From sequence record OR544955: DNA of 64,000 nt. One strand, written 5' to 3'. This stretch comes from Escherichia phage vB_EcoP_EP32B. Shown here piece after piece: positions 21,059-62,506 of the stretch. Made by a program: the position numbers and the translations under genes. Position 1 is the first letter of the stretch; each line of letters begins with the position of its first letter. The notes under the pieces were generated by a model. The model did not search any database. It was given only the letters and a program-made list of their open reading frames with translations, and was not told the origin of the DNA.

Positions 21059-21085
21059 GCCCCTTCCTTACGGTTGGGGCTTTTT
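21059..21085 (+). terminator. rho-independent terminator after rI
   Basis: GCCCC-TTCCTTACGGTT-GGGGC stem-loop followed by TTTTT. Confidence 0.6.
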
Positions 21086-21096
21086 GGCATCTATCA

Positions 21097-21146
21097 GTTT
21101 ACTTCTCCTCAGGTTGTGTTATAGTAGACCTTACTTACTAGAGGAG
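21097..21146 (+). promoter_or_regulatory. early promoter in inverted repeat (PeSL-like)
   Basis: GTTTAC, arms CTCCTC / GAGGAG around GTTATAGTAG. Confidence 0.45.
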
Positions 21147-21152
21147 AACGTT

Positions 21153-21332
21153 ATGTCACGTAAAGAAAAAATTTCTAAGTTGATGTTTTTGATTGAAGAG
21201 TATGCTAATGCGGTGTCTGATTGGGAAAATGCTCATGGGTGCGAAGATGGAGACATCGACATTAACAGAGCTATGAAAAAGATGGCTGATACTCACACCG
21301 AATTGCAAATGTATGTTAACGAGATTATGTGA
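21153..21332 (+). CDS. hypothetical protein (59 aa)
   Basis: ORF 21084..21332, start MSRKEKISKL after the promoter hairpin. Confidence 0.5.
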   Translation: MSRKEKISKLMFLIEEYANAVSDWENAHGCEDGDIDINRAMKKMADTHTELQMYVNEIM

Positions 21333-21339
21333 GGACATT

Positions 21340-21546
21340 ATGCTTTACGATTATACTGGAAAATCTGAAGACGGTGTACTTGAACTTTTACCTGAAAGCG
21401 CTGAAGACGATGATATGGTGGTGATGTTTTGTAAAAATGGCCCTGGGGATAAGGGATGGATTTATCTTCGCCAAGAAAATGACTTAATTGTTTTGGACCC
21501 TAAACAAGTTGAAGAACTTTATCAACATTTAAAACACAATCGGTAG
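21340..21546 (+). CDS. hypothetical acidic protein (68 aa)
   Basis: ATG preceded by GAGGAC. Confidence 0.5.
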   Translation: MLYDYTGKSEDGVLELLPESAEDDDMVVMFCKNGPGDKGWIYLRQENDLIVLDPKQVEELYQHLKHNR

Positions 21547-21590
21547 TTTACGTCTTGGTAGGACTATGATATAGTAATCCTACCAAAACA
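21546..21590 (+). promoter_or_regulatory. early promoter in inverted repeat (PeSL-like)
   Basis: GTTTAC, inverted repeat TTGGTAGGA...TCCTACCAA around TGATATAGT, then AAATGGAG. Confidence 0.45.
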
Positions 21591-21603
21591 AATGGAGAAC
21601 AAA

Positions 21604-21714
21604 ATGAAACTTTTGCTTATCGCTTATGTTGTAGTACAATACAATTATCCGATGTTTACTTATAACATGGTAAACGGCATAGTGAATCTTATTGAAACGA
21701 GTATGGTAAAATGA
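21604..21714 (+). CDS. small hydrophobic peptide (36 aa)
   Basis: ATG right after the PeSL with GGAGA Shine-Dalgarno; below track length cutoff. Confidence 0.35.
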   Translation: MKLLLIAYVVVQYNYPMFTYNMVNGIVNLIETSMVK

Positions 21715-21891
21715 CCCGTGAACAAGCTAATAAATTGATGGACCTTATCCGTGACTTACGTGAAGCCGATTCAGATTTGAGTGATGTAGCTTATCATGCG
21801 GTAAATGATAACGGAGACTTTTATGAAAATCAGGTTGATGCTTGCCAGAATGCTTTGGTGAATTTTGTTGAAACTTTAATTGGTGAATAAT
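21712..21891 (+). CDS. hypothetical protein (59 aa)
   Basis: MTREQANKLMDLIRDLREADSDL...; ATGA overlap with previous small ORF. Confidence 0.4.
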
Positions 21892-22422
21892 ATGAAAACT
21901 GTAATTGAAACAACCGAGTTGTTTGGTGATTTATGTATCGAAAAACGTGGTTATGTGTATGTTCTGACACAAGAAGATGATGCTGCTACTATTCTTCCTA
22001 TGGAACTGGACAAGATTTTGAAACTCAATCCGCCAGGCCATGCATCTGTAATTAACATCGATGAAGACCTTCAAGTTCGTTTTTATCACGGTCTTTATAG
22101 TGGGGTTAATATCGAAACTGAAGACGAATGTTTTTCTATCAATAATTGGAAAACATTCGTCACTAAGGTGAAAGAATTAATGGAATCTGAAACAGCCAAA
22201 AAGGCCAAACTTCAATGGGCTAAATGCCGTAATGCTTTTATTACAAATCAGGACCGCCCTGACTATACAACGGTCCTAGGCGTTAATCCTTCTTATGAAG
22301 ATGGTGATGTCGTAGTTATTCGTCAAATTGATGACCTTCGTCAACATATCGTTACATTAGACAAAGATGAAGCAGTTGCTCTTAAAGCTTATCTTGATTC
22401 TATTATACCGACTTTGAAATAA
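21892..22422 (+). CDS. hypothetical protein (176 aa)
   Basis: ORF 21880..22422, start MKTVIETTELFG. Confidence 0.6.
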   Translation: MKTVIETTELFGDLCIEKRGYVYVLTQEDDAATILPMELDKILKLNPPGHASVINIDEDLQVRFYHGLYSGVNIETEDECFSINNWKTFVTKVKELMESETAKKAKLQWAKCRNAFITNQDRPDYTTVLGVNPSYEDGDVVVIRQIDDLRQHIVTLDKDEAVALKAYLDSIIPTLK

Positions 22423-22431
22423 GGAATTATT

Positions 22432-22905
22432 ATGATTATCAATGAAAACTCTTGGCACTTTAAAATTTATGCCGCGTTTAATAGTACATGGAATCGCCCG
22501 AAAACGTTGTGTGCTTATTTTTGGAAAACGTTAATCCCGGTATTGGCTGTTTCAATTATTGGATTTGCGATTTTAGCAGCAGTCGTAATCATTGGCCAGG
22601 AAATTTTAACTAAATTCTTTGTTTTTAGTAGTCTATGGACATTAGTTCCGGCCTCAATTGGCGTAGGCATTTTAATGGTAGCAGTCATGGCTTTTATTGC
22701 TACCGGGTTGGTAATTGGTCCGTCTTGGTTGTTAGACAAATATAACGACAGAAAATATTATAAAGAAATCGAGCTCATTGCACAAAACCAAGAACGAATT
22801 AAAAATGGACTTGAACCTATTGAACGTAAGAAATCATTAATAGGTGAATACCTTAAAGCTCGTAAAGAAAAAATCTGTCCTACTCTTGAATATAAGGCTA
22901 AATGA
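22432..22905 (+). CDS. membrane protein (157 aa)
   Basis: three hydrophobic segments followed by a basic C-terminal tail. Confidence 0.6.
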   Translation: MIINENSWHFKIYAAFNSTWNRPKTLCAYFWKTLIPVLAVSIIGFAILAAVVIIGQEILTKFFVFSSLWTLVPASIGVGILMVAVMAFIATGLVIGPSWLLDKYNDRKYYKEIELIAQNQERIKNGLEPIERKKSLIGEYLKARKEKICPTLEYKAK

Positions 22906-23891
22906 TGAAAACAATTATGAAAGGCTACTTTGGTAGCCACCTTTATGGAACGTCTACTCCTGAATCTGACGTCGATTTTAAAGAAATTTATGTCCCTCAT
23001 GCTCGTGATATCTTGACCGGTAACGTTAAAGAACACATGAGCAAGAACACGAATAACACATCTTCTAAGAACACAAAAGACGACGTGGACCATGAGTTGT
23101 ATAGTCTCAAATATTTCTTTAAACTAGCTGCGGATGGTGAAACCGTCGCATTAGATATGCTTCACACTCCACCAAGTTTAGTAGTTAAATCTGATTTGCC
23201 TGATGTATGGAAGTATATTCAAGATAACAGGTCTCGTTTCTATACCACTAACATGAAATCTTATTTAGGGTATGTCCGTAAGCAAGCTTCTAAATATGGT
23301 GTCAAGGGTTCTCGACTGGCTGTTCTTCGTCAAGCCCTTAAACGTTCTAATGAATGGGGACAATACTTTGATAATGGTGCAGTAATTCGTTTATCACATA
23401 TGAAGAATGTTCTGCCTGTAGGTGAATTTGCTTCGTGGGTTGAAACTGAAAACGAGAAAACAGGTAAGCAAACATTCTATAATCTGTTAGACCGTAAATT
23501 CCAAGACACATTAACTAATAAAGAGTTCAATGCCATCCTGGTTAAACTGGAAGAGAACTATGGTGAACGTGCTCGTAAGGCAGAAGCTAACGAAGGTATT
23601 GACTGGAAAGCATTGAGTCATGCATGTCGTGGTGGACTTCAATTATTAGAAATTTACAAAACAGGCGATCTGGTTTACCCACTTCAGGATGCTCCATTTA
23701 TTCTCGATGTTAAGCTTGGTAAACATACGTTTAAAACTGTACAAGAATTCCTAGAAGATATCGTTGACCAAGTTGAACATGCGTCAGAACAAGCTGCCAA
23801 GAACGGTATGCAACAAAAAGTAGATATGAGTTTCTGGGATGACTTCCTTGAACAAGTCTATCTCGAAAATCATAATTCTTACTATAAATAA
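22902..23891 (+). CDS. putative Pol-beta-type nucleotidyltransferase-fold protein
   Basis: N-terminus MKGYFGSHLYGTSTPESDVDFKEIYV fits the GS-x(n)-DxD minimal nucleotidyltransferase signature; 329 aa. Confidence 0.6.
   Translation: MMKTIMKGYFGSHLYGTSTPESDVDFKEIYVPHARDILTGNVKEHMSKNTNNTSSKNTKDDVDHELYSLKYFFKLAADGETVALDMLHTPPSLVVKSDLPDVWKYIQDNRSRFYTTNMKSYLGYVRKQASKYGVKGSRLAVLRQALKRSNEWGQYFDNGAVIRLSHMKNVLPVGEFASWVETENEKTGKQTFYNLLDRKFQDTLTNKEFNAILVKLEENYGERARKAEANEGIDWKALSHACRGGLQLLEIYKTGDLVYPLQDAPFILDVKLGKHTFKTVQEFLEDIVDQVEHASEQAAKNGMQQKVDMSFWDDFLEQVYLENHNSYYK
23884..23891 (+). promoter_or_regulatory. late promoter TATAAATA
   Basis: exact TATAAATA about 32 bp before ATG 23923. Confidence 0.4.
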
Positions 23892-23922
23892 GTAGATAAA
23901 TAACCATTAACTTGAGGTAAAT

Positions 23923-24204
23923 ATGAAAAAATTAGTAATTGGTTTATTCGCAGTAATGATGGCATTCTCTGTTGGTGCTACCACGGGTGCTGCTGGCGGT
24001 AGTGCAGGAGCTGGTGGTAACCAGTCTTCTGGGCCTTCTAATGGTTCGGTAAATGCATCACATTCTCAGGGTATTGAGAACATTAGATCAAGCTATATTA
24101 ATAGCACGGCCGGACAAGCAACTGAAGCATGGTCAAAGGGCCGAGTAGTTACTCGCTCCGTATTCTGTGATATGCCTAATTATGTTGCTAAGTGCGATAA
24201 GTAA
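23923..24204 (+). CDS. secreted Gly/Ser-rich protein (93 aa)
   Basis: signal peptide MKKLVIGLFAVMMAFSVGA, low-complexity Gly-rich region, two Cys near C-terminus. Confidence 0.6.
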   Translation: MKKLVIGLFAVMMAFSVGATTGAAGGSAGAGGNQSSGPSNGSVNASHSQGIENIRSSYINSTAGQATEAWSKGRVVTRSVFCDMPNYVAKCDK

Positions 24205-24207
24205 ATG

Positions 24208-24232
24208 TGGGGACCTTCGGGTCCCTTTAGGG
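24208..24232 (+). terminator. UUCG-tetraloop hairpin terminator
   Basis: GGGGACC-TTCG-GGTCCC followed by TTT. Confidence 0.55.
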
Positions 24233-24256
24233 GGTCAAAATATTTTTAAAAAGTAG

Positions 24257-24296
24257 TGTACATGCTTTTAGGATATGTTATTATAGACCTATCGAA
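24257..24296 (+). promoter_or_regulatory. early promoter (PeSL-like)
   Basis: GTGTAC -35 variant, -10-like TTATTATAGACCTATC. Confidence 0.4.
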
Positions 24297-24322
24297 ACGA
24301 AATGAGTAAATTGGAGAATAAA

Positions 24323-25303
24323 ATGTTCAACGTTCAAATCAAAAAAGGTATCTATCGTAATAACGAAATCTCTGGTTCTTATGTTGCCACAAAGACCTGG
24401 TTCCCGGCAAAGCTTAATCCTGAATGTTCCCACTTAGGTGATGGTAAAATTTTCGTTATGATTGATGGTTCTGAACGTGGAGTATGGGTCTTCAAATCAG
24501 ACATCGTAATGGAAGGAGTTGAGACATCACCGGTTGCAGTTGTTGAAAGCACTGAAGATATGAAAACTCGTATCAACAAACGCTTTAAAGTAATGAACAT
24601 GATGACGAATGGCATTATCGATGGTAAAATTCGTTCACTCATTATTTCAGGTGCAGCTGGTATTGGTAAGACGTATTCTCTGGATAAAGCACTTAATAAC
24701 GCTAATGATAATGGTTTCATCAAATACAAAAGCATTAATGGTAAAATCTCCGGTATTGGCCTTTACGAACAACTTTGGCTCAACCGTGATGCAGACAGCG
24801 TTCTCTTAATCGACGACGTTTACGTATTCTCGGATATGGACATCTTGAACCTTCTTAAAGCAGCATTAGATACTGGAGATAAACGCAAAGTTTGCTGGAG
24901 CACGGCGTCATCTTATCTCGATGATAAGGGTATTGATAAAGAATTTGAGTTTGAAGGTACTATCGTTTTCATTACAAACGTTGATATCGATAAAGAGTTA
25001 GAACGCGGTTCGAAACTTGCTCCGCACCTTCAAGCTTTAGTATCTCGTTCAGTGTATCTCGACCTTGGAGTACACTCTAATGAAGAGATTATGGTTCGAG
25101 TTGAAGATGTAATATTATCTACTGACATGATGCAGAAACGTGGTCTGACGGATGCAGAAACGTATAAAGCATTGTCCTGGATGAAGGCTAACGTATCTCG
25201 TCTTCGCAATGTATCATTACGTACGGCTCTTTATGTAGCAGATTTTATTTCAACTGATAAAGATGGTTGGGAGGAAATCTCCGAAGTAACTTTACTGAAA
25301 TAA
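24323..25303 (+). CDS. P-loop ATPase with N-terminal extra domain
   Basis: Walker A GAAGIGKT, Walker B VLLIDDV; ORF 24302..25303 with start MFNVQ after GGAGAATAAA. Confidence 0.65.
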   Translation: MFNVQIKKGIYRNNEISGSYVATKTWFPAKLNPECSHLGDGKIFVMIDGSERGVWVFKSDIVMEGVETSPVAVVESTEDMKTRINKRFKVMNMMTNGIIDGKIRSLIISGAAGIGKTYSLDKALNNANDNGFIKYKSINGKISGIGLYEQLWLNRDADSVLLIDDVYVFSDMDILNLLKAALDTGDKRKVCWSTASSYLDDKGIDKEFEFEGTIVFITNVDIDKELERGSKLAPHLQALVSRSVYLDLGVHSNEEIMVRVEDVILSTDMMQKRGLTDAETYKALSWMKANVSRLRNVSLRTALYVADFISTDKDGWEEISEVTLLK

Positions 25304-25441
25304 GCTTATAGGAAGTTCTGAGGTAACAAAAGCCATAAAGATGAATAATCATATGGCTTACCTCAAAGAAGGACACCAGGAACCTACTGAGGGCATAGAA
25401 ATATTTAAAAATAATGTTGTACAAATCAAAGAGGCTATGTT

Positions 25442-25729: not shown

Positions 25730-25731
25730 TT

Positions 25732-25780: not shown

Positions 25781-25787
25781 GTAAAAC

Positions 25788-27373: not shown

Positions 27374-27402
27374 TGTACAACCAAGGATGGTTGGAGTATA
27401 AT
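27371..27402 (+). promoter_or_regulatory. early promoter; first copy of a 27-bp direct repeat
   Basis: TACAACCAAGGATGGTTGGAGTATAAT at 27376-27402, -10 TATAAT. Confidence 0.45.
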
Positions 27403-27428: not shown

Positions 27429-28250
27429 ATGGCTTTTATTACACGTAGAGAACTTATCAAAGAATTTACCTCGAACGCATATACTCCAGGACCTAATCCT
27501 ATCCGTATGCCTGTAAAGACTCCTGAAGAGATTGAGGAAATCTGTTCATATTATGGGATTACTTCTCGTAAGTTTACTCAATTTGAATGCGTTACTAACA
27601 CACCCGTTAAAGAGTTCATTAAAAATGGTGAGTTCAGCCGTTTATTAGCCAAACAGAAACTTCGTAATTTTTGTATTGGCGGTGAAGGACAATATTTCGC
27701 TAAGCAGTTTCGGAATAACCTTAACAATCTGATGGCCATTGCTTCTCGTATTCGTCCTCAAGCAATTAATATGAAACATTTGAAATATACTTACGATAAG
27801 TTGGAAATCATGGTTATCAGTGAGAATGAGTTCACTCTCACGTATAAACCTAAGAATGATAACGTTGCTCGTGTATTCCACCAAGCGTTGGAAGTGTTAG
27901 GTGATAATATTCACCAGATTAAAGCAATTTATTCTCGTGAGCTTAATATTATCAACCCTATCAAGAATAAGGGCCATATCGCTATCCAGGCTCGTGTATC
28001 TATTGGTAAAAAGGTTCCTGCGCCATGGTGGCACAAAGACTCCGAATATTATCAAAATCTTAAAAAGGAAAATGCACTAATGACCTTCTTCCGGCCGAAG
28101 ATTACCATTACAATCAAATCAAGGCCACTATGGACCAACTGTCTGTTGAACTTGACAAAGCACAAGCTAAGCTTCGTGATGCTCAAAGTGTTGTAACGAA
28201 TCTCCAGTTGCAGTACTCTAAACTTTTTAACGCAATGAATGCATTAAAAT
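27429..28250 (+). CDS. hypothetical protein, apparently frameshifted near its 3-prime end
   Basis: 255-codon ORF 27429..28196 ends in an implausible hydrophobic tail while the +2 frame encodes a coiled-coil C-terminus MDQLSVELDKAQAKLRDAQSVV...NALKS ending about 28250. Confidence 0.5.
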
Positions 28251-28257
28251 CATAAAT

Positions 28258-28289
28258 CAGTTTACAACCAAGGATGGTTGGAGTATAAT
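28258..28289 (+). promoter_or_regulatory. early promoter; second copy of the 27-bp direct repeat
   Basis: GTTTAC plus identical TACAACCAAGGATGGTTGGAGTATAAT at 28263-28289. Confidence 0.45.
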
Positions 28290-29568: not shown

Positions 29569-29981
29569 TGAGATATAGCCTTCGTTGTTTTATCGCAGCT
29601 TTAGTTTTTGCCATCATTCCATTCATTTGGAACAGCCAGAATACTTACATGGAAACTAAAGTAATTCCTGTGGAGGTAGTGGAATTAATTTCAGGTCAAT
29701 CTACAGGAAAATATTCTAAATTGGAATTTATTGCAGTTTATAAAGATGAACAAGGTCGAGTTTTTGACAGGCATGTATCACCATCGTTTTATACGCTTCT
29801 TAATAAAGGTGATACGATAGCTATAGAAATTCGTGAGATGGATATCAAACAAACTACTAAAGATAACCTGATTTGGTTCTTTGGTACAGTGTTGATGTTC
29901 TCTATCGGTATCACAGGTTTTATTACATGCATTGTATTTGGTGTTGCATATTTAATCGATGAAAGGAAAAATAATGTTTAA
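29568..29981 (+). CDS. membrane protein (137 aa)
   Basis: N- and C-terminal hydrophobic segments. Confidence 0.55.
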   Translation: MRYSLRCFIAALVFAIIPFIWNSQNTYMETKVIPVEVVELISGQSTGKYSKLEFIAVYKDEQGRVFDRHVSPSFYTLLNKGDTIAIEIREMDIKQTTKDNLIWFFGTVLMFSIGITGFITCIVFGVAYLIDERKNNV

Positions 29982-38289: not shown

Positions 38290-38463
38290 ATGACGAACAT
38301 CCCGACTTCTGAAAATTTCGATAAAATCCGTAAAGGCAAAGCAGAAAGAATGAGACGTTTTAAAGAGTCTTATGATAAAGCTAAAGCCGAAGGAACTATT
38401 ACATACAAGCCCATTCGATTTAAAAGTTCAAATGAGCCTCTGTACGGCGTACTATGTGGATAG
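38290..38463 (+). CDS. small basic protein (57 aa)
   Basis: MTNIPTSENFDKIRKGKAE...; GAGGTG upstream; ends at terminator. Confidence 0.35.
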   Translation: MTNIPTSENFDKIRKGKAERMRRFKESYDKAKAEGTITYKPIRFKSSNEPLYGVLCG

Positions 38464-38487
38464 GAACTCTTCGGAGTTCCTTTTTTT
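38463..38487 (+). terminator. UUCG-tetraloop hairpin terminator
   Basis: GGAACTC-TTCG-GAGTTCC followed by TTTTTTT. Confidence 0.6.
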
Positions 38488-38533
38488 GCTTTATAAACGG
38501 ATGATAGAATGAATTAATTAATGAGGAAATAAT

Positions 38534-39553
38534 ATGAAAATTTTGCACTTAGGCGACTTCCATATCGGAGTCAAACAAGACGACCCATGGGTTCAAGATA
38601 TTCAACGTGATGGTATTCGTCAAGCAATTGAATACTCTAAGAAACACGGGATTAAAACTTGGATTCAGTACGGTGATTGGTTTGACGTCCGTAAAGCAAT
38701 AACGCATCGTACAATGGAATTCAATCGTGAAATCGTTGATATGATTTCTAAAGCAGGCATTCACGTTCATGTCACGATAGGAAACCATGACATGGCGTTT
38801 AAGAATACAATAACACCTAACACTGTTTCTGAATTGTTAACTCAATTTGAAAACTTTACTATTTACGAACATCCAACTACTGTAGATTTTGACGGATGTC
38901 TGATTGATATCGTTCCATGGATGTGTGAAGAAAATACAGGTGAAATCTTAGAGCACATCAAGACTTCTTCTGCGGCGTATTGTGTTGGTCACTGGGAACT
39001 GAACGGCTTCTATTTCTATAAAGGAATGAAGTCTCATGGGCTTGAACCTGATTTCTTAAAGACCTATAAACAAGTTTGGTCCGGCCACTTCCACACAATC
39101 TCTGAAGCTGCTAACGTCAAATATATTGGAACACCGTGGACCCTTACTGCAGGCGATGAGAACGATCCTCGCGGATTCTGGGTATTTGACACTGATGTTG
39201 AACGTATGGAATTTATTCCTAATGAAACAACATGGCATCGACGAATCACTTATCCATTTAAAGGCAAAATCAATTATTCTGATTATACTAATCTAGCCGT
39301 ACGTGTTATAGTATCAGAAATTGATTCAGAGTTGACTAAGTTTGAATCTGAACTTGAAAAAGTAGTTCACTCTCTTCGTATGGTTTCTAAAGTTGATAAC
39401 AGTGTTGAATCTGATGACGACCAGGAAATCGAGATTAAATCACTTCAAGATATCATTAAAGAATATATTGACGCGATTCCGGATATCTCAGACGAAGACA
39501 GAGAAGCGCTGGTCAAATATTCAAACGAACTTTATATTGAGGCAACACAATGA
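38534..39553 (+). CDS. 47: recombination nuclease subunit gp47 (Mre11/SbcD-like)
   Basis: 339 aa; phosphoesterase motifs LGDFHIG, GDWFD, GNHDM. Confidence 0.9.
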   Translation: MKILHLGDFHIGVKQDDPWVQDIQRDGIRQAIEYSKKHGIKTWIQYGDWFDVRKAITHRTMEFNREIVDMISKAGIHVHVTIGNHDMAFKNTITPNTVSELLTQFENFTIYEHPTTVDFDGCLIDIVPWMCEENTGEILEHIKTSSAAYCVGHWELNGFYFYKGMKSHGLEPDFLKTYKQVWSGHFHTISEAANVKYIGTPWTLTAGDENDPRGFWVFDTDVERMEFIPNETTWHRRITYPFKGKINYSDYTNLAVRVIVSEIDSELTKFESELEKVVHSLRMVSKVDNSVESDDDQEIEIKSLQDIIKEYIDAIPDISDEDREALVKYSNELYIEATQ

Positions 39554-43017: not shown

Positions 43018-43092
43018 GACAAAGATTTACGTTTAATGTGATACGATTATGGAGGAGAAATCCTCCAGTTTAATGATAATGAGGAAAATTAC

Positions 43093-44991: not shown

Positions 44992-44997
44992 AGCAAT

Positions 44998-45011
44998 GGG
45001 ACTTCGGTCCC
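44998..45011 (+). other. UUCG-tetraloop RNA hairpin between regA and gene 43
   Basis: GGGAC-TTCG-GTCCC with no following T-run; possible gene 43 operator or RNA stability element. Confidence 0.4.
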
Positions 45012-45072
45012 ATTTGGAGTATAATAAGTTCATCAACAAACAAAAGACAATAACTCGTCTAAAGGAAATTAA

Positions 45073-47757
45073 ATGAAAGAATTTTACTTAACGGTTGAAC
45101 AGATTGGTGATTCAATTTTTGAACGTTACATCGATTCTAATGGCCGTGAACGTACTCGTGAAGTAGAATATAAACCATCACTGTTTGCTCATTGTCCAGA
45201 AAGTCAGGCTACGAAATATTTCGATATCTACGGTAAGCCGTGTACTCGTAAGTTGTTCGCTAATATGCGTGATGCCTCCCAATGGATTAAACGTATGGAA
45301 GATATCGGACTTGAAGCACTTGGCATGGACGATTTCAAATTGGCGTATTTGTCTGACACTTATAACTATGAAATCAAATACGACCATACAAAAATTCGTG
45401 TGGCTAACTTCGACATCGAAGTAACATCTCCGGACGGGTTCCCTGAGCCGTCACAAGCAAAACATCCGATTGATGCTATCACCCATTATGACTCAATTGA
45501 CGACAGGTTCTACGTATTTGATCTATTGAATTCTCCATATGGTAATGTAGAAGAATGGTCTATCGAAATTGCAGCTAAGCTTCAAGAACAAGGTGGTGAT
45601 GAAGTTCCATCCGAAATTATCGATAAAATCATTTATATGCCGTTCGATAACGAAAAAGAATTGTTGATGGAATATCTCAACTTCTGGCAACAGAAAACTC
45701 CTGTCATTTTGACTGGATGGAACGTTGAGTCATTTGATATTCCATATGTGTATAACCGAATCAAGAATATTTTTGGCGAATCTACTGCGAAACGTTTATC
45801 ACCACATCGTAAAACTCGTGTTAAAGTTATCGAAAACATGTATGGTTCTCGTGAAATCATTACATTGTTCGGTATCTCTGTTCTTGATTATATTGACCTT
45901 TACAAAAAATTCTCTTTTACCAATCAACCGTCGTATTCTCTGGATTACATTTCAGAATTTGAATTGAACGTTGGTAAACTGAAATACGACGGTCCTATTT
46001 CTAAACTTCGTTATAACATCATCGACGTATATCGTGTATTGCAAATTGATGCTAAACGCCAGTTCATTAACTTGAGTTTGGACATGGGTTATTATGCTAA
46101 GATACAGATTCAATCTGTGTTTAGCCCAATTAAAACATGGGATGCTATTATTTTTAATAGCCTTAAAGAACAAAACAAGGTGATTCCACAAGGTCGTTCG
46201 CATCCAGTTCAACCTTACCCGGGTGCTTTTGTTAAGGAACCTATTCCAAATCGATACAAATATGTAATGAGTTTCGACCTTACATCTCTGTATCCAAGTA
46301 TTATTCGCCAAGTGAATATTAGCCCGGAAACAATAGCAGGAACGTTTAAAGTAGCTCCACTGCATGATTATATTAACGCAATCGCTGAACGTCCTTCAGA
46401 TGTGTACAGTTGCTCTCCTAACGGCATGATGTATTATAAAGACCGTGACGGTGTTGTTCCAACTGAAATCACTAAGGTCTTTAATCAACGTAAAGAACAT
46501 AAAGGTTATATGCTTGCAGCTCAACGTAATGGTGAAATAATTAAAGAGGCATTGCATAATCCTAATCTTTCTGTTGACGAACCATTAGATGTTGATTATC
46601 GTTTCGACTTCAGCGATGAGATTAAAGAAAAGATTAAAAAGTTGTCTGCTAAATCTCTTAATGAAATGTTGTTTAGAGCTCAACGTACTGAAGTTGCAGG
46701 TATGACTGCACAGATTAACCGTAAATTGCTTATCAACTCACTTTATGGTGCACTTGGAAACGTTTGGTTCCGTTATTATGATTTGCGTAATGCTACTGCA
46801 ATCACAACATTCGGACAAATGGCTTTACAGTGGATTGAACGTAAAGTTAATGAATATCTGAATGAAGTTTGCGGTACAGAAGGTGAAGCTTTCGTTCTTT
46901 ATGGTGATACAGACTCTATTTACGTATCTGCTGATAAAATTATCGATAAGGTTGGTGAATCTAAATTCCGTGATACCAACCATTGGGTAGACTTCTTAGA
47001 TAAGTTCGCTCGTGAACGTATGGAACCTGCTATTGATAGAGGTTTCCGTGAAATGTGCGAATACATGAATAATAAGCAACATTTGATGTTCATGGACCGA
47101 GAAGCTATCGCTGGTCCTCCGCTCGGTTCTAAAGGTATTGGTGGATTTTGGACTGGTAAGAAACGTTATGCATTAAACGTGTGGGATATGGAAGGTACTC
47201 GTTACGCTGAGCCTAAACTCAAAATCATGGGTCTAGAGACTCAGAAATCTTCGACACCTAAAGCAGTACAGAAAGCTCTTAAAGAATGTATTCGTCGTAT
47301 GCTTCAAGAAGGTGAAGAATCATTACAAGAATATTTTAAAGAGTTTGAAAAAGAATTCCGTCAATTGAATTATATTAGCATCGCGTCGGTATCTTCTGCG
47401 AATAACATTGCTAAATATGATGTCGGTGGATTCCCTGGCCCCAAATGTCCGTTCCATATTCGTGGAATTCTGACATATAACCGAGCTATCAAAGGTAATA
47501 TCGATGCACCGCAAGTTGTAGAAGGTGAAAAAGTATATGTTCTGCCTTTACGTGAAGGAAACCCATTCGGTGATAAATGTATCGCATGGCCTTCTGGTAC
47601 GGAAATCACTGATTTAATCAAAGATGATGTACTTCATTGGATGGACTACACGGTTCTCCTTGAGAAGACATTTATTAAACCACTTGAAGGATTCACATCA
47701 GCAGCTAAACTCGATTACGAGAAGAAAGCATCTCTGTTCGATATGTTTGATTTTTGA
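45073..47757 (+). CDS. 43: DNA polymerase gp43 (family B)
   Basis: 894 aa; exonuclease motif FDIEV, polymerase motifs DxxSLYPS and YGDTDS. Confidence 0.95.
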   Translation: MKEFYLTVEQIGDSIFERYIDSNGRERTREVEYKPSLFAHCPESQATKYFDIYGKPCTRKLFANMRDASQWIKRMEDIGLEALGMDDFKLAYLSDTYNYEIKYDHTKIRVANFDIEVTSPDGFPEPSQAKHPIDAITHYDSIDDRFYVFDLLNSPYGNVEEWSIEIAAKLQEQGGDEVPSEIIDKIIYMPFDNEKELLMEYLNFWQQKTPVILTGWNVESFDIPYVYNRIKNIFGESTAKRLSPHRKTRVKVIENMYGSREIITLFGISVLDYIDLYKKFSFTNQPSYSLDYISEFELNVGKLKYDGPISKLRYNIIDVYRVLQIDAKRQFINLSLDMGYYAKIQIQSVFSPIKTWDAIIFNSLKEQNKVIPQGRSHPVQPYPGAFVKEPIPNRYKYVMSFDLTSLYPSIIRQVNISPETIAGTFKVAPLHDYINAIAERPSDVYSCSPNGMMYYKDRDGVVPTEITKVFNQRKEHKGYMLAAQRNGEIIKEALHNPNLSVDEPLDVDYRFDFSDEIKEKIKKLSAKSLNEMLFRAQRTEVAGMTAQINRKLLINSLYGALGNVWFRYYDLRNATAITTFGQMALQWIERKVNEYLNEVCGTEGEAFVLYGDTDSIYVSADKIIDKVGESKFRDTNHWVDFLDKFARERMEPAIDRGFREMCEYMNNKQHLMFMDREAIAGPPLGSKGIGGFWTGKKRYALNVWDMEGTRYAEPKLKIMGLETQKSSTPKAVQKALKECIRRMLQEGEESLQEYFKEFEKEFRQLNYISIASVSSANNIAKYDVGGFPGPKCPFHIRGILTYNRAIKGNIDAPQVVEGEKVYVLPLREGNPFGDKCIAWPSGTEITDLIKDDVLHWMDYTVLLEKTFIKPLEGFTSAAKLDYEKKASLFDMFDF

Positions 47758-54285: not shown

Positions 54286-55458
54286 ATGTCTGATTTAAAA
54301 TCTCGTCTGATTAAAGCTTCTACTTCTAAAATGACTGCAGACTTGACTAAGTCTAAGCTGTTTAATAATCGTGATGAAGTCCCTACTCGTATTCCGATGT
54401 TGAATATTGCATTAGGTGGTGCACTGAATGCCGGGTTGCAATCAGGCTTAACTATTTTTGCTGCTCCTTCTAAACACTTTAAAACGTTGTTTGGACTAAC
54501 TATGGTTGCAGCGTATATGAAGAAATATAAAGATGCAATCTGTTTGTTTTATGACTCAGAATTCGGTGCTTCGGAATCTTATTTTCGTTCAATGGGTGTT
54601 GATTTAGACCGTGTAGTTCATACTCCGATTCAATCTGTCGAACAACTTAAGGTTGATATGACTAATCAGCTTGACGCGATTGAACGCGGTGATAAAGTTA
54701 TTATCTTTATCGATTCAATCGGTAATACTGCATCTAAGAAAGAAACCGAAGATGCGTTGAACGAGAAAGTTGTAGGTGATATGTCTCGTGCTAAGGCACT
54801 TAAATCTCTGTTCCGCATTGTGACTCCTTATCTGACTATTAAAGATATTCCGTGTGTTGCAATTAACCATACTGCAATGGAAATTGGCGGACTATATCCT
54901 AAAGAGATTATGGGCGGTGGTACAGGTATTCTTTATTCTGCCAACACGGTATTTTTTATCTCTAAACGTCAGGTTAAAGAAGGTACAGAATTGACCGGTT
55001 ATGACTTTACGTTGAAAGCGGAAAAATCTCGTACAGTTAAAGAGAAATCTACTTTCCCGATCACGGTTAATTTTGATGGCGGTATTGACCCATTCAGTGG
55101 CTTGTTAGAAATGGCAACTGAAATTGGATTTGTTGTTAAGCCTAAAGCCGGGTGGTATGCTCGTGAATTCCTTGACGAAGAAACAGGTGAAATGATTCGT
55201 GAAGAAAAATCATGGCGTGCTAAAGCTACTGATTGTGTAGAATTCTGGGGACCTTTGTTTAAACACAAACCTTTCCGAGATGCAATTGAAACTAAATATA
55301 AACTAGGTGCTATCTCTTCTATTAAAGAAGTTGATGACGCTGTTAACGACCTTATTAATTGCAAAGCAACAACTAAAGTTCCGGTTAAAACTTCTGATGC
55401 TCCGTCTGCAGCAGATATAGAAAACGACCTTGACGAAATGGAAGATTTCGATGAATAA
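54286..55458 (+). CDS. uvsX: RecA-like recombinase UvsX
   Basis: 390 aa; MSDLKSRLIKASTSKMTADLTKSKLF, RecA-fold ATPase with acidic C-terminus. Confidence 0.95.
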   Translation: MSDLKSRLIKASTSKMTADLTKSKLFNNRDEVPTRIPMLNIALGGALNAGLQSGLTIFAAPSKHFKTLFGLTMVAAYMKKYKDAICLFYDSEFGASESYFRSMGVDLDRVVHTPIQSVEQLKVDMTNQLDAIERGDKVIIFIDSIGNTASKKETEDALNEKVVGDMSRAKALKSLFRIVTPYLTIKDIPCVAINHTAMEIGGLYPKEIMGGGTGILYSANTVFFISKRQVKEGTELTGYDFTLKAEKSRTVKEKSTFPITVNFDGGIDPFSGLLEMATEIGFVVKPKAGWYAREFLDEETGEMIREEKSWRAKATDCVEFWGPLFKHKPFRDAIETKYKLGAISSIKEVDDAVNDLINCKATTKVPVKTSDAPSAADIENDLDEMEDFDE

Positions 55459-55792
55459 TCTCGATGATTTAAATCTAGAAATCGTTGATGAATCCCCTTC
55501 TTTGGAAGGGGAGGACATTCGCAAAGAACGAGTGTTTAATGAATCTCTTAAAATTGTCCGTTCAGCAATGGAAAATGTCATTCAAGAGATTCTGATTACA
55601 CTTGAAGACGGTTCCCATCATATAGTCTATATTACAAAACTAGACTGGGTTGATGGTAAAATCGTAATGGACTTTGCAGTTCTTGACCAGGACAGAAAAG
55701 CAGAACTTGCGCCACATGTTGAAAAATGTGTTACAATGCAAGTACAACAAGCTTTTAATGAACGGACCAAGAAAAAATTTAAATTCTTTTAA
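55451..55792 (+). CDS. 40: gp40-like protein (by synteny between uvsX and 41)
   Basis: start MNNLDDLN overlapping uvsX stop. Confidence 0.55.
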   Translation: MNNLDDLNLEIVDESPSLEGEDIRKERVFNESLKIVRSAMENVIQEILITLEDGSHHIVYITKLDWVDGKIVMDFAVLDQDRKAELAPHVEKCVTMQVQQAFNERTKKKFKFF

Positions 55793-57244: not shown

Positions 57245-57250
57245 TAAAAA

Positions 57251-57270
57251 GGAGACTTCGGTCTCCTTTC
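57251..57270 (+). terminator. UUCG-tetraloop hairpin terminator after gene 41
   Basis: GGAGAC-TTCG-GTCTCC followed by TTTC. Confidence 0.5.
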
Positions 57271-57273: not shown

Positions 57274-57305
57274 GTTTACATCTTCCTCTAGGCATGATAT
57301 GATGT
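57274..57305 (+). promoter_or_regulatory. early promoter
   Basis: GTTTAC then GATATGATG -10-like. Confidence 0.4.
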
Positions 57306-58080: not shown

Positions 58081-58331
58081 GCAAATTAACTAAGGTTACT
58101 TTTATCGGTTGGTTTAAAAGCGGTGAGATGTTCACTAAAGATATCATGTTATCAGGTGATCGCGAAGAAATCGAGTGGGTTACGGTACAACTTGCTGAAG
58201 TGAACAAAGCATTAGTTAAAGCGTTTGTTAATGACGAGAAAGTTTTTGAAGCTGATTTCAAGTTTAAAATAGCTGTTTACAAGCCCCACATATTGTGTTA
58301 CTATCTTTCTATCAACTACAGAGGAAATTGA
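58077..58331 (+). CDS. hypothetical protein (84 aa)
   Basis: start MSKLTKVTFIGW after GAGGAAAT; ATGA overlap. Confidence 0.45.
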   Translation: MSKLTKVTFIGWFKSGEMFTKDIMLSGDREEIEWVTVQLAEVNKALVKAFVNDEKVFEADFKFKIAVYKPHILCYYLSINYRGN

Positions 58332-58332
58332 A

Positions 58333-58701
58333 ATGAAAAAATTAATCGCTTTAGCAATGGTATTTGGATTAACCGGATGTGGTGCCCATGGCTTTATCCC
58401 TAATAACGTTGGCCAATTGATTTACAATCCGAATGTTAAACAGTATGACCAACCTAAAGTTGAAGTGGAAGACCCGGTTACTGTAGGTAATCGAATGATT
58501 CAAGCTGATGCCCATGCTCAACGTTATCGTGACTCTGATACTGTAGCATTGTCAAAAGAACAACGCGTTAAAGAACATTGTCTACAGGCTACTGAAATCG
58601 CATTCATTCGCTATGTTGAAACAACTGGTAAAGAGCCTACCCAGAAACAAATAGCGAATAACTACGTCCAGTGTATTGAACGTTTAAACAAATTTAATTA
58701 A
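58333..58701 (+). CDS. lipoprotein (122 aa)
   Basis: signal peptide with lipobox LTGC. Confidence 0.6.
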   Translation: MKKLIALAMVFGLTGCGAHGFIPNNVGQLIYNPNVKQYDQPKVEVEDPVTVGNRMIQADAHAQRYRDSDTVALSKEQRVKEHCLQATEIAFIRYVETTGKEPTQKQIANNYVQCIERLNKFN

Positions 58702-58762
58702 TTGGTTTACACCAAAGTTAAAACAAGATACTATAAACATAACAAATCAAGAGGAAATTAAC

Positions 58763-59011
58763 ATGGAATTATTCGTGGCTAGTTCAGTAGCAGTTTTAAT
58801 CGCAGGTATTGGTTCAATCATCATTTACATGTTGCCTTGGGTAATCGCACTTATTCGTGGCACAAAAAGCACAACAGCAATCTTCTTTGTATCTTTACTC
58901 TTTAACTGGACGATGGTTGGTTGGATTGGAACTTTAATTTGGTCTATCGTTGCCGAAAAGAAATCTGCTCAGCAGCCTCAACAAGTAATTATTATTCGCG
59001 AAAAAGAATAA
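58763..59011 (+). CDS. membrane protein (82 aa)
   Basis: two hydrophobic helices. Confidence 0.55.
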   Translation: MELFVASSVAVLIAGIGSIIIYMLPWVIALIRGTKSTTAIFFVSLLFNWTMVGWIGTLIWSIVAEKKSAQQPQQVIIIREKE

Positions 59012-59015
59012 ACTT

Positions 59016-59055
59016 GTTTACATTATAGATGGACTATAGTATAGTAGTCCTATCA
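59016..59055 (+). promoter_or_regulatory. early promoter in inverted repeat (PeSL-like)
   Basis: GTTTAC, inverted repeat GGACTATAGTATAGTAGTCC, then AAGGAG. Confidence 0.45.
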
Positions 59056-59074
59056 AATCAACTAAGGAGTTAAA

Positions 59075-59368
59075 ATGAAAAAGTTATCATTGGCAGCAAT
59101 CTTACTTGCAGTATCATGTGCACCGGCTCCAGTTACGGCAGGTTATGATAAAGACCTCTGTGAGTGGTCAATGACTGCAAATCAAGAAGATGTTGAACAA
59201 CAAATCTTCTCTGATATCATGAACATCACTAAACGAGACCGTCCTAATATGGTTAATAAAGTTGTTGAACAACTTAAGTCTGGCGGTATCATGCAGTACA
59301 ACTATGTTTTGTATTGTGACCCTAATTTCGATAACAAAGATATCGTAACCGAAATCACAGGTGAATAA
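59075..59368 (+). CDS. sp: Spackle (sp) periplasmic protein
   Basis: signal peptide then AGYDKDLCEWSMTANQ...LKSGGIMQYNYVLYCDPNF, matches recalled T4 Sp. Confidence 0.8.
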   Translation: MKKLSLAAILLAVSCAPAPVTAGYDKDLCEWSMTANQEDVEQQIFSDIMNITKRDRPNMVNKVVEQLKSGGIMQYNYVLYCDPNFDNKDIVTEITGE

Positions 59369-59369
59369 T

Positions 59370-59786
59370 ATGATTTATTATATGCACAAAAATGCGCCAT
59401 TTAAATATGGTAAATTTCCTAATGCACAATGTTATAATATAACGCCTAATGAAAATAATAACGGATACCATCTCGGTGTAATTTTTGTAATTGTTAAAGA
59501 TAACGAAATCGTTGCCTGGGCAGATTTTAAAGGTACAACATATGATGTTAATCCTGTGCCTTTCACATATTATAATTTAATGGATTTGGCATATGATTAT
59601 AATTGGTTTAATCATGAAGGATTTGACATCTCTTATTCTAGCTATTCATTATGTCCTATGAGCCGAGCTCACGGTAAAGATGTATCATATCTTTCAATTC
59701 GGAAACGTGTAAACTTCAAACGTAGTACAGAGTATGTTGGTGGACTCTTTGTTAAAGATAATAAAATAACATTAGTTATCCTCTAA
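59370..59786 (+). CDS. hypothetical protein (138 aa)
   Basis: ORF 59361..59786, start MIYYMHKN. Confidence 0.5.
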   Translation: MIYYMHKNAPFKYGKFPNAQCYNITPNENNNGYHLGVIFVIVKDNEIVAWADFKGTTYDVNPVPFTYYNLMDLAYDYNWFNHEGFDISYSSYSLCPMSRAHGKDVSYLSIRKRVNFKRSTEYVGGLFVKDNKITLVIL

Positions 59787-59993
59787 GTGTAGGCCAAAAA
59801 GATGTTGATGTTGATTTGGACTTAACTGAAAATAACATTAATCGTATTGCTTCTGTATATTTTGATATCGATGAAAAAATTGTAGTGTGTGGATACGAAT
59901 TACCACCTGAAGAAAAGGCCGAAACAATTGAAGTCGAATTAGAAATTTCTGTTGATGACCAAATATTTAATGCATTTATGAATCGAGGTTAAA

Positions 59994-60179
59994 ATGACTA
60001 CTGCAATTTGCACTGGTTCTAAAATTAGTGTTTTTACAAGTTTTGAAGATTATGAAGTTGTTTCAAAACACCAATGCCATATTAGCGTAAAAGCTAATGA
60101 CGGTGTAATTTGGAATATTCCACAGTATGAAGGCACTACATATGAAGTCACAGATAAAGCAATCTTTGTAATTGATTAA
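59994..60179 (+). CDS. hypothetical protein (61 aa)
   Basis: short ORF. Confidence 0.45.
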   Translation: MTTAICTGSKISVFTSFEDYEVVSKHQCHISVKANDGVIWNIPQYEGTTYEVTDKAIFVID

Positions 60180-60198
60180 ATATACTCAGGAGGTACCT

Positions 60199-60666
60199 AT
60201 GGGTATTATTAACACTGCAATAGATTCTGTTTACGCATATAAGTTTATTCGACTAATGCAAAAACCTTTTACCGAATGGAAAGCGTACGAAGCCAAAATA
60301 ATCGATGAACGTGGAAGTGTTCTTAAACGTCCTTCTACTCCTGAAGAGAAAGCGGCTTATACACCTTTTCATGCTTCAGTTCGTTCAATGAAGCGAATGA
60401 TGAGTACTGTTCCAGGTCTTAATGGAATGGCCTCAATGATGTCTGCCTGGAGTGCTGTAGCTTCACGCTATAACATTACTGAAGAACAACAGAAAGAAAT
60501 ATTTAAAGAACTCCCTTTATTTGAGGATATGGTTGCTGGTGATTCAGGCGGCAGTCCTCAAGCTATTGCATCAGGAACAACTACAGGTGCAGTCGTAAAT
60601 AAAGGTCCAGAACAAATTCCTTCCAAGAAAAGAAAGCGAATTAAAGTAAATATTAATAAGTTGTGA
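60199..60666 (+). CDS. hypothetical protein (155 aa)
   Basis: start MGIINTAIDS after AGGAGGTACCT. Confidence 0.55.
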   Translation: MGIINTAIDSVYAYKFIRLMQKPFTEWKAYEAKIIDERGSVLKRPSTPEEKAAYTPFHASVRSMKRMMSTVPGLNGMASMMSAWSAVASRYNITEEQQKEIFKELPLFEDMVAGDSGGSPQAIASGTTTGAVVNKGPEQIPSKKRKRIKVNINKL

Positions 60667-60705
60667 TAAGATGGCCTTATTAATTTAAGGCCTCTGGAGA
60701 ATACT

Positions 60706-61728
60706 ATGGCTGAATGGATAGATAATGAATTTGCTTATCGTGCGTTTTCTCACCTACCTCGTTTTAGACAAATCAATAATTCAAGTACATTTAAATTAAC
60801 ATTTCGATGTCCAGTTTGTGGCGACTCCCAGACAGATGCAATGAAAGCTCGCGGATGGTATTATGGCGGTACTCCTGGTAATGTACATTGCTATAACTGT
60901 CAATACCACAATACAATTTCAGGATACTTAAAAGAGTATGATGAAGAGCTTTATCGCGAATATCTAATGGAAGTTCGTAAAGAAAAAGCTAGAATGGAAC
61001 CAAAGATTGAAAAGGTTCCTGAACATAAACCAGAACCGGAGAAAAAGACTATAAATTCTTTGCCGTCTTGTTCTCGTCTAGACAAGTTGCCTGAAGAGCA
61101 TCCTATTGTGAAATATGTTAAGTCTCGGTGTATTCCTAAAGAATCGTGGAATAGATTATGGTTCACATTAGAATGGCCTAAATTGGTCAACAAGATTCAA
61201 CCTGGTACGTATAAGAAAGAGATTCCCGAGCCACGTTTAGTGATTCCTATTTTTAATAAAGACGGGAAGGCCGAGTCATTCCAAGGACGTGCACTTCGTA
61301 AAGATGCTCCTCAGAAATATATCACTATTAAAGCGTTTGAGTCTGCAACAAAAATTTATGGCGTTGAACGTGTTAAGGAAGGAGACGTCTGGGTAATGGA
61401 AGGCCCTATTGATAGTTTATTCATACCCAATGCAATCGCTATTACAGGCGGCTCGATAGATTTAGATGTGGTACCATTTAAAGAACGACGGGTATGGGTA
61501 ATGGATAATGAACCTAGGCATCCGGATACTATAGCTCGCATGAAGCGATTAGTTGATGCAGGCGAACGTGTCATGTTCTGGGATAGAGCTCCATGGAGTT
61601 CAAAGGATGTGAATGATATGGTAATGAAAGAAAATGCAACACCACAAGAAATTTTAGAATATATGAAACAGAATATTTCAAGTGGGTTGCATGCTAAAAT
61701 GAGATTATCTCGTTATTCGAAGATTTAA
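60706..61728 (+). CDS. 61: DNA primase gp61
   Basis: zinc ribbon CPVCGDS...CYNCQ and TOPRIM region VWVMEGPIDS / VMDNEPRH. Confidence 0.9.
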   Translation: MAEWIDNEFAYRAFSHLPRFRQINNSSTFKLTFRCPVCGDSQTDAMKARGWYYGGTPGNVHCYNCQYHNTISGYLKEYDEELYREYLMEVRKEKARMEPKIEKVPEHKPEPEKKTINSLPSCSRLDKLPEEHPIVKYVKSRCIPKESWNRLWFTLEWPKLVNKIQPGTYKKEIPEPRLVIPIFNKDGKAESFQGRALRKDAPQKYITIKAFESATKIYGVERVKEGDVWVMEGPIDSLFIPNAIAITGGSIDLDVVPFKERRVWVMDNEPRHPDTIARMKRLVDAGERVMFWDRAPWSSKDVNDMVMKENATPQEILEYMKQNISSGLHAKMRLSRYSKI

Positions 61729-61922
61729 ACAAGCCCTATAATAGCAAAGGCCAAATCAACTACAGTATCCAATGGAACAGAAGGAACTATAATACCATGG
61801 GCAACTAACAATGGTGCAATCCCGAAGTTCCATGAAATAATGCCACCTACAACTATTGCAGCGATAGCATTTTTCTTTTTATTGCCTTTAATAGCGTTGA
61901 TTAACGATGGAAGTTTAAACAT
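61725..61922 (-). CDS. small membrane protein (65 aa)
   Basis: only ORF in the 61729-61996 gap; minus-strand AAGGAG Shine-Dalgarno about 6 nt before ATG; two hydrophobic segments. Confidence 0.5.
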   Translation of the reverse strand: MFKLPSLINAIKGNKKKNAIAAIVVGGIISWNFGIAPLLVAHGIIVPSVPLDTVVDLAFAIIGLV

Positions 61923-62011
61923 AATATCTCCTTAGTTACCTATTATTTATTACGCTTTATAAAATTAATGTTAGAATTAACTCACTTATTACTGAATTGA
62001 AAGGAAAAATA

Positions 62012-62326
62012 ATGGCGCACTTTAATGAATGTTCACAACTTATTTCTGGTGTTGATAAAGCAGAAGAAGCTTATTTTAATGCTCTGATTCACGAAGATAA
62101 AGACCCACTTCAGGTAATGCTTGATATGCAGAAATCTTTACAGGTTCGTCTGGCAAATGACAAGCCTGAACATAACAAACATCCTGATGAATTGGCTACT
62201 GCCGGTGATGTTGTTGATTGGCTGCGTAATCAGAAAGATTATATTGATGATGAATTCCGTGAACTGTTGACTTCACTTGGTGGTATGATTATAAATACAC
62301 CTGTAATTAAACAACAAAGGAGTTAA
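62012..62326 (+). CDS. 56: dCTP pyrophosphatase gp56-like (MazG-type), short form
   Basis: MAHFNECSQLISGVDKAEEAYF...ATAGDVVDWLRNQKDYIDDEFRELLTSLG; 104 aa, shorter than T4 gp56 as recalled. Confidence 0.65.
   Translation: MAHFNECSQLISGVDKAEEAYFNALIHEDKDPLQVMLDMQKSLQVRLANDKPEHNKHPDELATAGDVVDWLRNQKDYIDDEFRELLTSLGGMIINTPVIKQQRS
62290..62297 (+). promoter_or_regulatory. late promoter TATAAATA upstream of soc
   Basis: exact TATAAATA about 32 bp before soc ATG, within the 3-prime end of gene 56. Confidence 0.5.
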
Positions 62327-62328
62327 TT

Positions 62329-62472
62329 ATGGGTGGTTATGTAAACATCAAAACCTTTACGCATCCTGCTGGTGAAGGCAAAGAAGTTAAAGGTATGGAA
62401 GTTTCTGTACCGTTTGAGATTTATTCAAACGAACATCGGATTGCTGATTCTCATTACCAAGTAAGTGGTTAA
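62329..62472 (+). CDS. soc: Soc-like small outer capsid protein, shortened (47 aa)
   Basis: GYVNIKTF...HYQVSG resembles Soc N-terminus and extreme C-terminus; AAGGAG Shine-Dalgarno; terminator immediately downstream. Confidence 0.55.
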   Translation: MGGYVNIKTFTHPAGEGKEVKGMEVSVPFEIYSNEHRIADSHYQVSG

Positions 62473-62481
62473 ATAATTTAA

Positions 62482-62506
62482 GGAATCCTTCGGGATTCCT
62501 TTTTTT
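62482..62506 (+). terminator. UUCG-tetraloop hairpin terminator after soc
   Basis: GGAATCC-TTCG-GGATTCC followed by TTTTTTT. Confidence 0.65.

Follow-up and report, generated by a model that had tools for sequence, protein, structure and literature searches.

C(UUCG)G hairpins behind genes of Escherichia phage vB_EcoP_EP32B

What is the role of the GC-rich hairpins with UUCG loops that recur behind genes of Escherichia phage vB_EcoP_EP32B (sequence record OR544955), and is the one between regA and gene 43 of the same kind as the others? The DNA analysed here, called the window below, is one strand of 64,000 nucleotides (nt). An earlier note made from the sequence alone had listed five such hairpins, regarded four of them as terminators with T-runs, and left the one before gene 43 as a possible protein-binding operator or stability element. 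In our judgement the UUCG hairpins are a real, functional and already known feature, and the finding is an ordinary one: the phenomenon, its biophysics, its occurrence in phage T4 at these positions, the separate operator of the gene 43 protein (gp43) and the module of stem-loop and promoter are all in the literature. We consider, with a probability of about 0.85, that the hairpins are RNA 3'-end elements of T4-type early and middle transcription units, each paired with a downstream promoter. Knowledge of T4-type gene expression is not changed by these hairpins. Their value is for annotation, where they would delimit transcription units and, together with the promoters, mark insulating modules of the RB69-type genome.

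Over a 5-kb stretch spanning regA and gene 43, the window showed about 97% identity to RB69 and about 150 other Mosigvirus genomes, and its gene order agrees with the RB69 and T4 annotations. Judged by these sequence comparisons, it is an RB69-like T4-type coliphage. Gene names are those of the RB69 and T4 records. The + strand of the window corresponds to the minus strand of RB69, and early and middle transcription run in this direction.

Five C(UUCG)G hairpins and their relatives

A systematic scan of the window found five TTCG hairpins, all on the + (mRNA-sense) strand and all with a C-G pair closing the loop. The first (24210-24225, +) is GGGACC-ttcg-GGTCCC, with a stem of 6 base pairs (bp), or 7 with a G.U pair; it begins 5 nt past the stop of an open reading frame (ORF) of 93 amino acids (aa), has nrdC.10 downstream, and carries the short U-tract tail UUUAGGGGG. 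The second (38462-38481, +), AGGAACTC-ttcg-GAGTTCCT with an 8-bp stem, overlaps the TAG stop of the a-gt.2 homologue and is followed by U7. The third (44995-45014, +), between regA and gene 43, is AATGGGAC-ttcg-GTCCCATT, also with an 8-bp stem, 3 nt past the regA stop codon and with the tail UGGAG. The fourth (57248-57269, +), AAAGGAGAC-ttcg-GTCTCCTTT with a 9-bp stem, lies 3 nt past the stop of gene 41; its tail is CGGGG, and its U-tract consists of 3 U within the stem. The fifth (62480-62501, +), AAGGAATCC-ttcg-GGATTCCTT with a 9-bp stem, lies 7 nt past the stop of a truncated soc and runs into a long U-run. Thus the hairpins start about 0-5 nt past a stop codon, the soc site being the one at 7 nt. 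All five listed in the earlier note exist, within 1-3 nt of the positions given there, and their location after genes or between regA and gene 43 proved to be adjacent to the stop codon in every case.

The five hairpins are real and non-random. Sequences simulated 200 times with a first-order Markov model carried a mean of 0.19 TTCG hairpins with stems of at least 6 bp on the two strands combined and never more than 2, as against the 5 observed. On the - strand of the window, TTCG hairpins are absent even when stems down to 4 bp are admitted. Among all window hairpins with stems of at least 6 bp, TTCG is the sole tetraloop sequence that recurs more than three times, and the + strand of the window has no further UNCG hairpin and a single GNRA hairpin. 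Local RNA folding, which the note had proposed as a check, predicted each of the five as the structure of minimum free energy; the z-scores range between -0.7 and -5.8 (-5.8 at 62480). Nearest-neighbour calculation predicted -8.7 to -10.8 kcal/mol for the trimmed hairpins.

Hairpins of this type are reportedly what Tuerk and colleagues described in T4 mRNA as extra-stable C(UUCG)G hairpins (PNAS, 1988). It was in T4 mRNA that UUCG tetraloops with a closing C-G pair were discovered, and among small RNA hairpins none is known to be more stable (PMC4371310); they are frequent in T4 intergenic stem-loops, for example in transcription terminators (Durand et al., PMC1702504). In the homologous 49 kb of T4, a scan located UUCG hairpins with different stems and an identical loop at positions that correspond to four of the five in the window. 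Their stems are AGGGAGCC at nrdC.11/nrdC.10, ATAGGAGC after a-gt.2, AAGGGGC at regA/43 (T4 positions 29952-29969) and AAGGACTCC after soc. At the nrdC.11/nrdC.10 junction, RB69 and T4 carry UUCG hairpins with different stems, and the hairpin after soc has orthologues in T4 and RB69 with a compensatory stem change. The hairpin behind gene 41 is present in RB69 and not at that position in T4 or the other relatives examined, in which an early promoter stands directly after the gene 41 stop codon. Compared with the T4 C(UUCG)G hairpins, the window elements share the loop, the C-G closing pair, the intercistronic location on the sense strand and orthologous positions in four of five cases; they differ by compensatory changes in the stems and by the gene 41 hairpin. 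By this sequence comparison they are the known T4-type C(UUCG)G extra-stable tetraloop hairpins.

Two other T4 UUCG hairpins, one between genes 45 and 44 and one inside gene 40, are replaced in the window by GAAA and UUUG loops, respectively. The former is the GNRA hairpin at 43050-43067, where T4 has UUCG. The latter, TCCCCTTC-uuug-GAAGGGGA at 55493-55512, lies inside the coding sequence of gene 40 just past the uvsX/40 overlap, has a local fold of -18.4 kcal/mol (z = -3.4) and no U-tract after it; its loop is UUCG in RB69 and T4, and the stem change in T4 is compensatory. It appears that families of extra-stable loops are interchangeable at a given site.

The wider family was surveyed in 43 T4-like loci from IMG/VR, covering about 0.86 Mb around regA, with stems of at least 6 bp and at least 3 GC pairs. 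There were 98 TTCG hairpins on the sense strand and 0 on the antisense strand, and the next loop, GAAA, was found 13 times. The C-G closing pair was present in 80 of 83 distinct family hairpins with stems of at least 5 bp, and many of the family UUCG hairpins have a MotA-box-like motif, TGCT(T/A), and TATAAT immediately after them. Because a palindrome in DNA is symmetrical, the complete strand bias means that the loop is selected in RNA. At the regA/43 site, 12 distinct sequences in a hand-anchored alignment had 94.8% of cells paired and changes on both sides in 7 of 8 pairs; all 500 shuffles stayed below the observed score, and sliding the partners destroyed the signal.

The T4 and RB69 GenBank records were searched for promoter and terminator annotation and hold coding sequence features only. 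No Rfam family matched the whole window at gathering thresholds, which reflects the small size of the elements and not novelty.

Tails, downstream promoters and the likely mode of action

The tails of the five hairpins are of two kinds. Hairpin 38462 is followed by TTTTTTT, and so is 62480 if the last two T of its stem are counted; after 24210 comes TTTAGGGGG, while 57248 ends in TTT with CGGGG next to it and 44995 in ATTT with GGAG next to it. A U-rich tract of about 5 or more U in 8 nt is present at 38462 and 62480 and absent at 24210, 44995 and 57248. On an approximate score of the d'Aubenton-Carafa type, which is indicative only, 38462 reached +29 and 62480 reached +35, with +31 for the trpL attenuator as control, while 24210, 44995 and 57248 obtained -7 to -17, under the threshold. 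Thus 38462 and 62480 score as canonical intrinsic terminators. They share with the intrinsic terminators of E. coli and phages a GC-rich stem-loop right after the gene, 7 U and scores like that of trpL, whereas the other three of the five differ by having only 3 U past the stem and sub-threshold scores. Of the four T-runs in the earlier note, those at 38462 and 62480 were borne out, and those at 24210 and 57248 amount to TTT only. The hairpin between regA and gene 43 does lack a long run, as had been said, but it is no poorer in T than 24210 and 57248. The more general idea of terminators or stability elements at gene ends agrees with position, strand specificity, compensatory conservation and identity with the CUUCGG of T4; as canonical terminators, only two of the five agree with it.

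A promoter-like element lies within 36 nt downstream of every hairpin, by matches to consensus only. Three are of the early type and contain TG: 24257-24284 (+) after hairpin 1 (TGTACA, 16 nt, TATTAT), 57275-57303 (+) 5 nt past hairpin 4 (TTTACA, 17 nt, TATGAT), and 62517-62545 (+) after hairpin 5 (TTTACA, 17 nt, TAAGAT). After hairpin 2, a middle promoter of gene 47 is predicted at 38487-38510 (+), with TGCTTTA at 38487-38493, 11 bp, TAGAAT at 38505-38510 and the ATG at 38534; this spacing has the canonical MotA-type geometry. The T4 promoters P43, P47 and PmobB start 19, 31 and 33 nt past T4 UUCG hairpins (starts from PMC2988021), and the T4 hairpins associated with P47 and PmobB are orthologous or paralogous to those of the window.

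From these features the following mode of action may be proposed. The hairpin would fold at once as the transcript emerges. Hairpins with a long U-tract behind them (38462, 62480) would be rho-independent terminators. With no more than about 3 U, those at 24210, 44995 and 57248 would be at most leaky terminators or attenuators, and they would more likely serve as stable 3' caps against 3'-to-5' exonucleases, on transcripts that ended or were cut nearby; read-through into the next gene would still be possible at these sites. A promoter a few nt downstream would restart the next unit, of the sigma70 early type at 24257, 57275 and 62517, and of the MotA middle type at 38487 and over or after 44995. 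Hairpin and promoter together would then form an insulating terminator/promoter module, which might also be a junction for cassette exchange.

Several points weigh against regarding all five as transcript 3' ends. The canonical U-tract is absent in three of the five, so the label of terminator is weak there, and the tract is labile: at site 1, T4 has U6 and the window UUUA, and at site 2 it is the reverse. A literature search for T4 transcriptome or RNA 3'-end mapping studies found nothing relevant. The terminator score joins an approximate formula to modern energy parameters and is indicative only, and the anchoring of the regA/43 alignment on the loop favours pairing. T4 and this phage differ in which sites carry the U-tract, but both keep the hairpin; the hairpin and not termination is therefore the common denominator and the conserved functional part.

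These same data bear on the strongest alternative, to which we give somewhat less than an even chance: that 24210, 44995 and 57248 never terminate and have a purely post-transcriptional role, either blocking 3' exonucleases or nucleating the folding that sets stable mRNA 3' ends once an endonuclease has cut. Their U-tracts score about 2.5, versus about 5 at the canonical sites, their terminator scores are negative, and the gain and loss of the tract around a retained hairpin is in line with such a role. So are the UUCG or UUUG hairpins inside gene 40 and the UUCG or GAAA hairpins between the co-transcribed genes 45 and 44, because full termination there would be harmful, and T4 genes past such hairpins are also reached by read-through (PMC2988021). 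However, the T4 orthologue at regA/43, whose tail UUAUUUGG is better, scores slightly above zero, and the stem-loops of the PeSL type that were tested in reporters terminated strongly (PMC2839356). The facts are also compatible with partial termination, and this alternative does not exclude the view of the hairpins as 3'-end elements.

The pairing of hairpin and promoter is known from the modules named PeSL and PmSL, in which stem-loop and promoter serve as terminators and recombination junctions (Arbiol et al. 2010, PMC2839356; Comeau et al. 2014, PMC4122927). Shared features are an intergenic stem-loop, an early promoter or a MotA box with -10 element, a Shine-Dalgarno sequence, an ATG, and an association with indels of gene cassettes. 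Differences are that PeSLs were defined in RB49/phi1, PST/T4 and nt-1/KVP40, with stems of G-run/C-run or AGNA type, and that the two papers neither highlight the UUCG loop nor analyse RB69-type phages (RB69 is unmentioned in PMC2839356). In the window, stem-loop and promoter stand in one intergenic unit, as far as consensus matches tell. Indels between close relatives are seen at site 1, as a cassette swap relative to RB69, and at site 4, where the hairpin is there in RB69 and not in T4 or the others examined; sites 2, 3 and 5 are in conserved contexts. At site 1 the order in RB69 is nrdC.11, hairpin, promoter, ORF102c, nrdC.10, while in the window the hairpin and promoter unit shared with RB69 stands directly before nrdC.10 and the 93-aa ORF lies between nrdC.11 and the hairpin.

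Such rearrangement raises the alternative that the elements act at the DNA level, as PeSL-type linkers for recombination and shuffling or as promoter architecture, with the RNA hairpin being incidental. The cassette exchange around the hairpin/promoter unit of site 1, the restricted occurrence of the gene 41 hairpin, the PeSL literature itself (PMC2839356; PMC4122927) and the overlap of the regA/43 hairpin with the -30 region of P43, the promoter of gene 43, would fit it. We regard it as improbable: a palindrome is symmetrical, yet all 98 of the UUCG loops counted in the family read so on the mRNA-sense strand, and the covarying stems and the choice of loops from extra-stable RNA tetraloop families point to selection on RNA.

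The exchanged cassette at site 1 comprises window 23890-24262 versus RB69 54996-55331, beside the hairpin/promoter unit. The 93-aa ORF in it (23923-24204) encodes a glycine-rich product with a signal-peptide-like N-terminus, unrelated to RB69 ORF102c.

The hairpin between regA and gene 43

Is the third hairpin the gp43 operator? The intergenic sequence between regA and gene 43 is identical to that of RB69, whose operator, according to PMC3014915, is a hairpin of 16 nt that has UAAC in its loop and adjoins the ribosome-binding site. The actual gp43 translational operator region of the window is accordingly 45045-45075 (+), where AGAC-AAUAACUC-GUCU at 45045-45060 is followed by the Shine-Dalgarno sequence and by the AUG at 45073. 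The UUCG hairpin ends 31 nt before the operator hairpin and 58 nt before the gene 43 AUG. Its predicted energy is -11.7 kcal/mol, versus about -3 for the operator hairpin. Both are hairpins in the regA-43 intercistronic region, as the gp43 operator of T4 and RB69 is (Wang et al. 1997 and Petrov & Karam 2002, summarised in PMC3014915), but that operator is a weak stem of 4-5 bp with an 8-nt UAAC loop, and the UUCG hairpin is separate and far more stable. An 8-nt loop with UAAC next to the ribosome-binding site is found at 45045-45060 and not in the UUCG hairpin, whose loop has 4 nt.

The two hairpins also differ in what is conserved. In every lineage in which gene 43 directly follows regA, a first hairpin starts 2-11 nt past the regA stop. 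Its loop is mostly UUCG, and UACG, UCCG, GAAA or UUAC in some lineages; after it comes a short U-rich stretch, (G)GAGTATAAT or GGGTATAAT. A second hairpin, with the loop AAU(A/C/U)ACUC, lies just upstream of the Shine-Dalgarno sequence, and in it the loop is conserved and the stem is variable across relatives. The loop swaps of the first hairpin, together with its compensatory stems, argue for selection on stability and not on recognition by a protein, as far as sequence comparison can tell.

The position of P43 points in the same direction. In T4 the P43 start has been mapped at 29933 (Hinton's middle-promoter table, PMC2988021 Table 1), with TATAAT at 29943-29938, so the UUCG hairpin at 29952-29969 is at -19 to -36 relative to this start. 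Since it lies upstream of the start, the P43 transcripts of T4 do not contain it. In the window, the -10 element of P43 is predicted at 45020-45025 (+; TATAAT) by homology with T4 P43, and the start is predicted at about 45030-45033. A start there is downstream of the UUCG hairpin, which would then be present only on read-through transcripts from regA; by homology with T4, the hairpin is expected to be missing from the P43 mRNA, on which an operator has to be present.

For these reasons the suggestion that gp43 binds the hairpin at 44995-45014 as (part of) its translational operator and so represses its own translation has to be given up, and we consider it highly unlikely. It was a natural thought, as the site is in the regA-43 intercistronic region without a long T-run and a hairpin ahead of the gene 43 start codon is a known target of gp43 (PMC3014915). 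Yet 45045-45060 matches the described RB69 operator exactly, in intergenic sequence identical to that of RB69. The downstream hairpin is the one that keeps its loop, AAU[A/C/U]ACUC; the UUCG loop gives way to other extra-stable tetraloops, a swap incompatible with a protein site that depends on sequence. The T4 orthologue, being upstream of the mapped P43 start, is off the P43 transcripts, and the CUUCGG loop has been described as binding no proteins (PMC4371310). By sequence, the regA/43 UUCG hairpin is a regA-distal 3' element and not the gp43 operator. It would form the 3' end of read-through transcripts that contain regA, with gp43 autoregulation working through the separate hairpin at 45045-45060. 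The practical consequence is that a mis-assignment is avoided: the operator is the weak hairpin with the UAAC loop, and not the conspicuous UUCG hairpin. As to the weakest reading, that the five are chance inverted repeats in an AT-rich genome, each element is small and nothing else speaks for it, and 5 observed against 0.19 expected and at most 2 in 200 simulations, the place of all five directly after stop codons, the T4 orthologues, the 98:0 strand bias in relatives and the regA/43 covariation make its probability negligible.

The DNA of hairpin 44995-45014 lies over the -30 region of the middle promoter predicted for gene 43. A MotA-dependent promoter was defined by a -10 element TAnnnT and a box (a/t)(a/t)(a/t)TGCTTtA centred at -30, 12 +/- 1 bp upstream. 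The window has GACTTCG (45000-45006), 13 bp and then TATAAT, with an ACTT centre as in T4 P46 (PMC2988021). In T4, GCTT of the loop region is at -31 to -28 of the P43 start, which is the centre of a MotA box, and the spacing to the -10 element is 15 bp. RB69 encodes MotA and AsiA. Relatives with UACG or GAAA loops are without a MotA-box-like motif. That the hairpin DNA doubles as the activator site of P43 is suggestive only. In a broader and rather doubtful version of this idea, (G/A)CTTCG would be dual-coded, as the UUCG loop in read-through regA RNA and as the core of the P43 MotA box, and short-tailed UUCG hairpins in general would be 3' stabilisers. If dual coding were true, upstream termination or capping and activator-dependent initiation of gene 43 would be physically coupled in one 20-bp element.

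Two further candidates at this site were considered. A canonical sigma70 -35 element for the promoter after the regA/43 hairpin was rejected, because no hexamer at a distance of 16-18 bp upstream of TATAAT agrees with TTGACA at more than 3 of 6 positions. RegB cleavage at the GGAG after the hairpin was set aside, because GGAG by TATAAT also occurs at the early promoters 27378 and 28265.

Further modules and gaps in the window

Position 21059, with which the earlier note had opened its range, belongs to a different hairpin, at 21058-21081, with a TTAC loop instead of UUCG. The stretch 21058-21125 reads AGCCCCUUCC-uuac-GGUUGGGGCU with two U.U mismatches, then UUUUU, and then an early-type promoter (TTTACT, 16 nt, TATAGT); by its sequence it is another stem-loop/promoter module. 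The early-type promoters 27374-27402 and 28261-28289 have a common hairpin in the spacer, CAACCA-agga-TGGTTG, followed by GAGTATAAT, and may be repeated promoter cassettes. Their GGAGTATAAT recurs after the regA/43 hairpin.

The window has four gaps relative to all of the about 150 sequenced relatives. One of about 160 bp is inside a kpsF-like gene (about 48093), and one of about 210 bp is around 61.4/dmd (about 58260). At 62288, about 340-440 bp are missing together with the 3' half of gene 56 (dCTPase), leaving an ORF of 109 aa versus 173 aa, and an in-frame gap of 93 bp inside soc (about 62459) gives a product of 47 aa versus 78. These gaps could be caused by mis-assembly, by editing of the sequence or by a defective genome. 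In the comparison with RB69, more junctions are shorter by about 90-300 bp, at 28070, 30238, 31076, 34224 and 41515; among them, one is inside gene 46 (520 aa versus 562 aa) and one inside nrdC.5.

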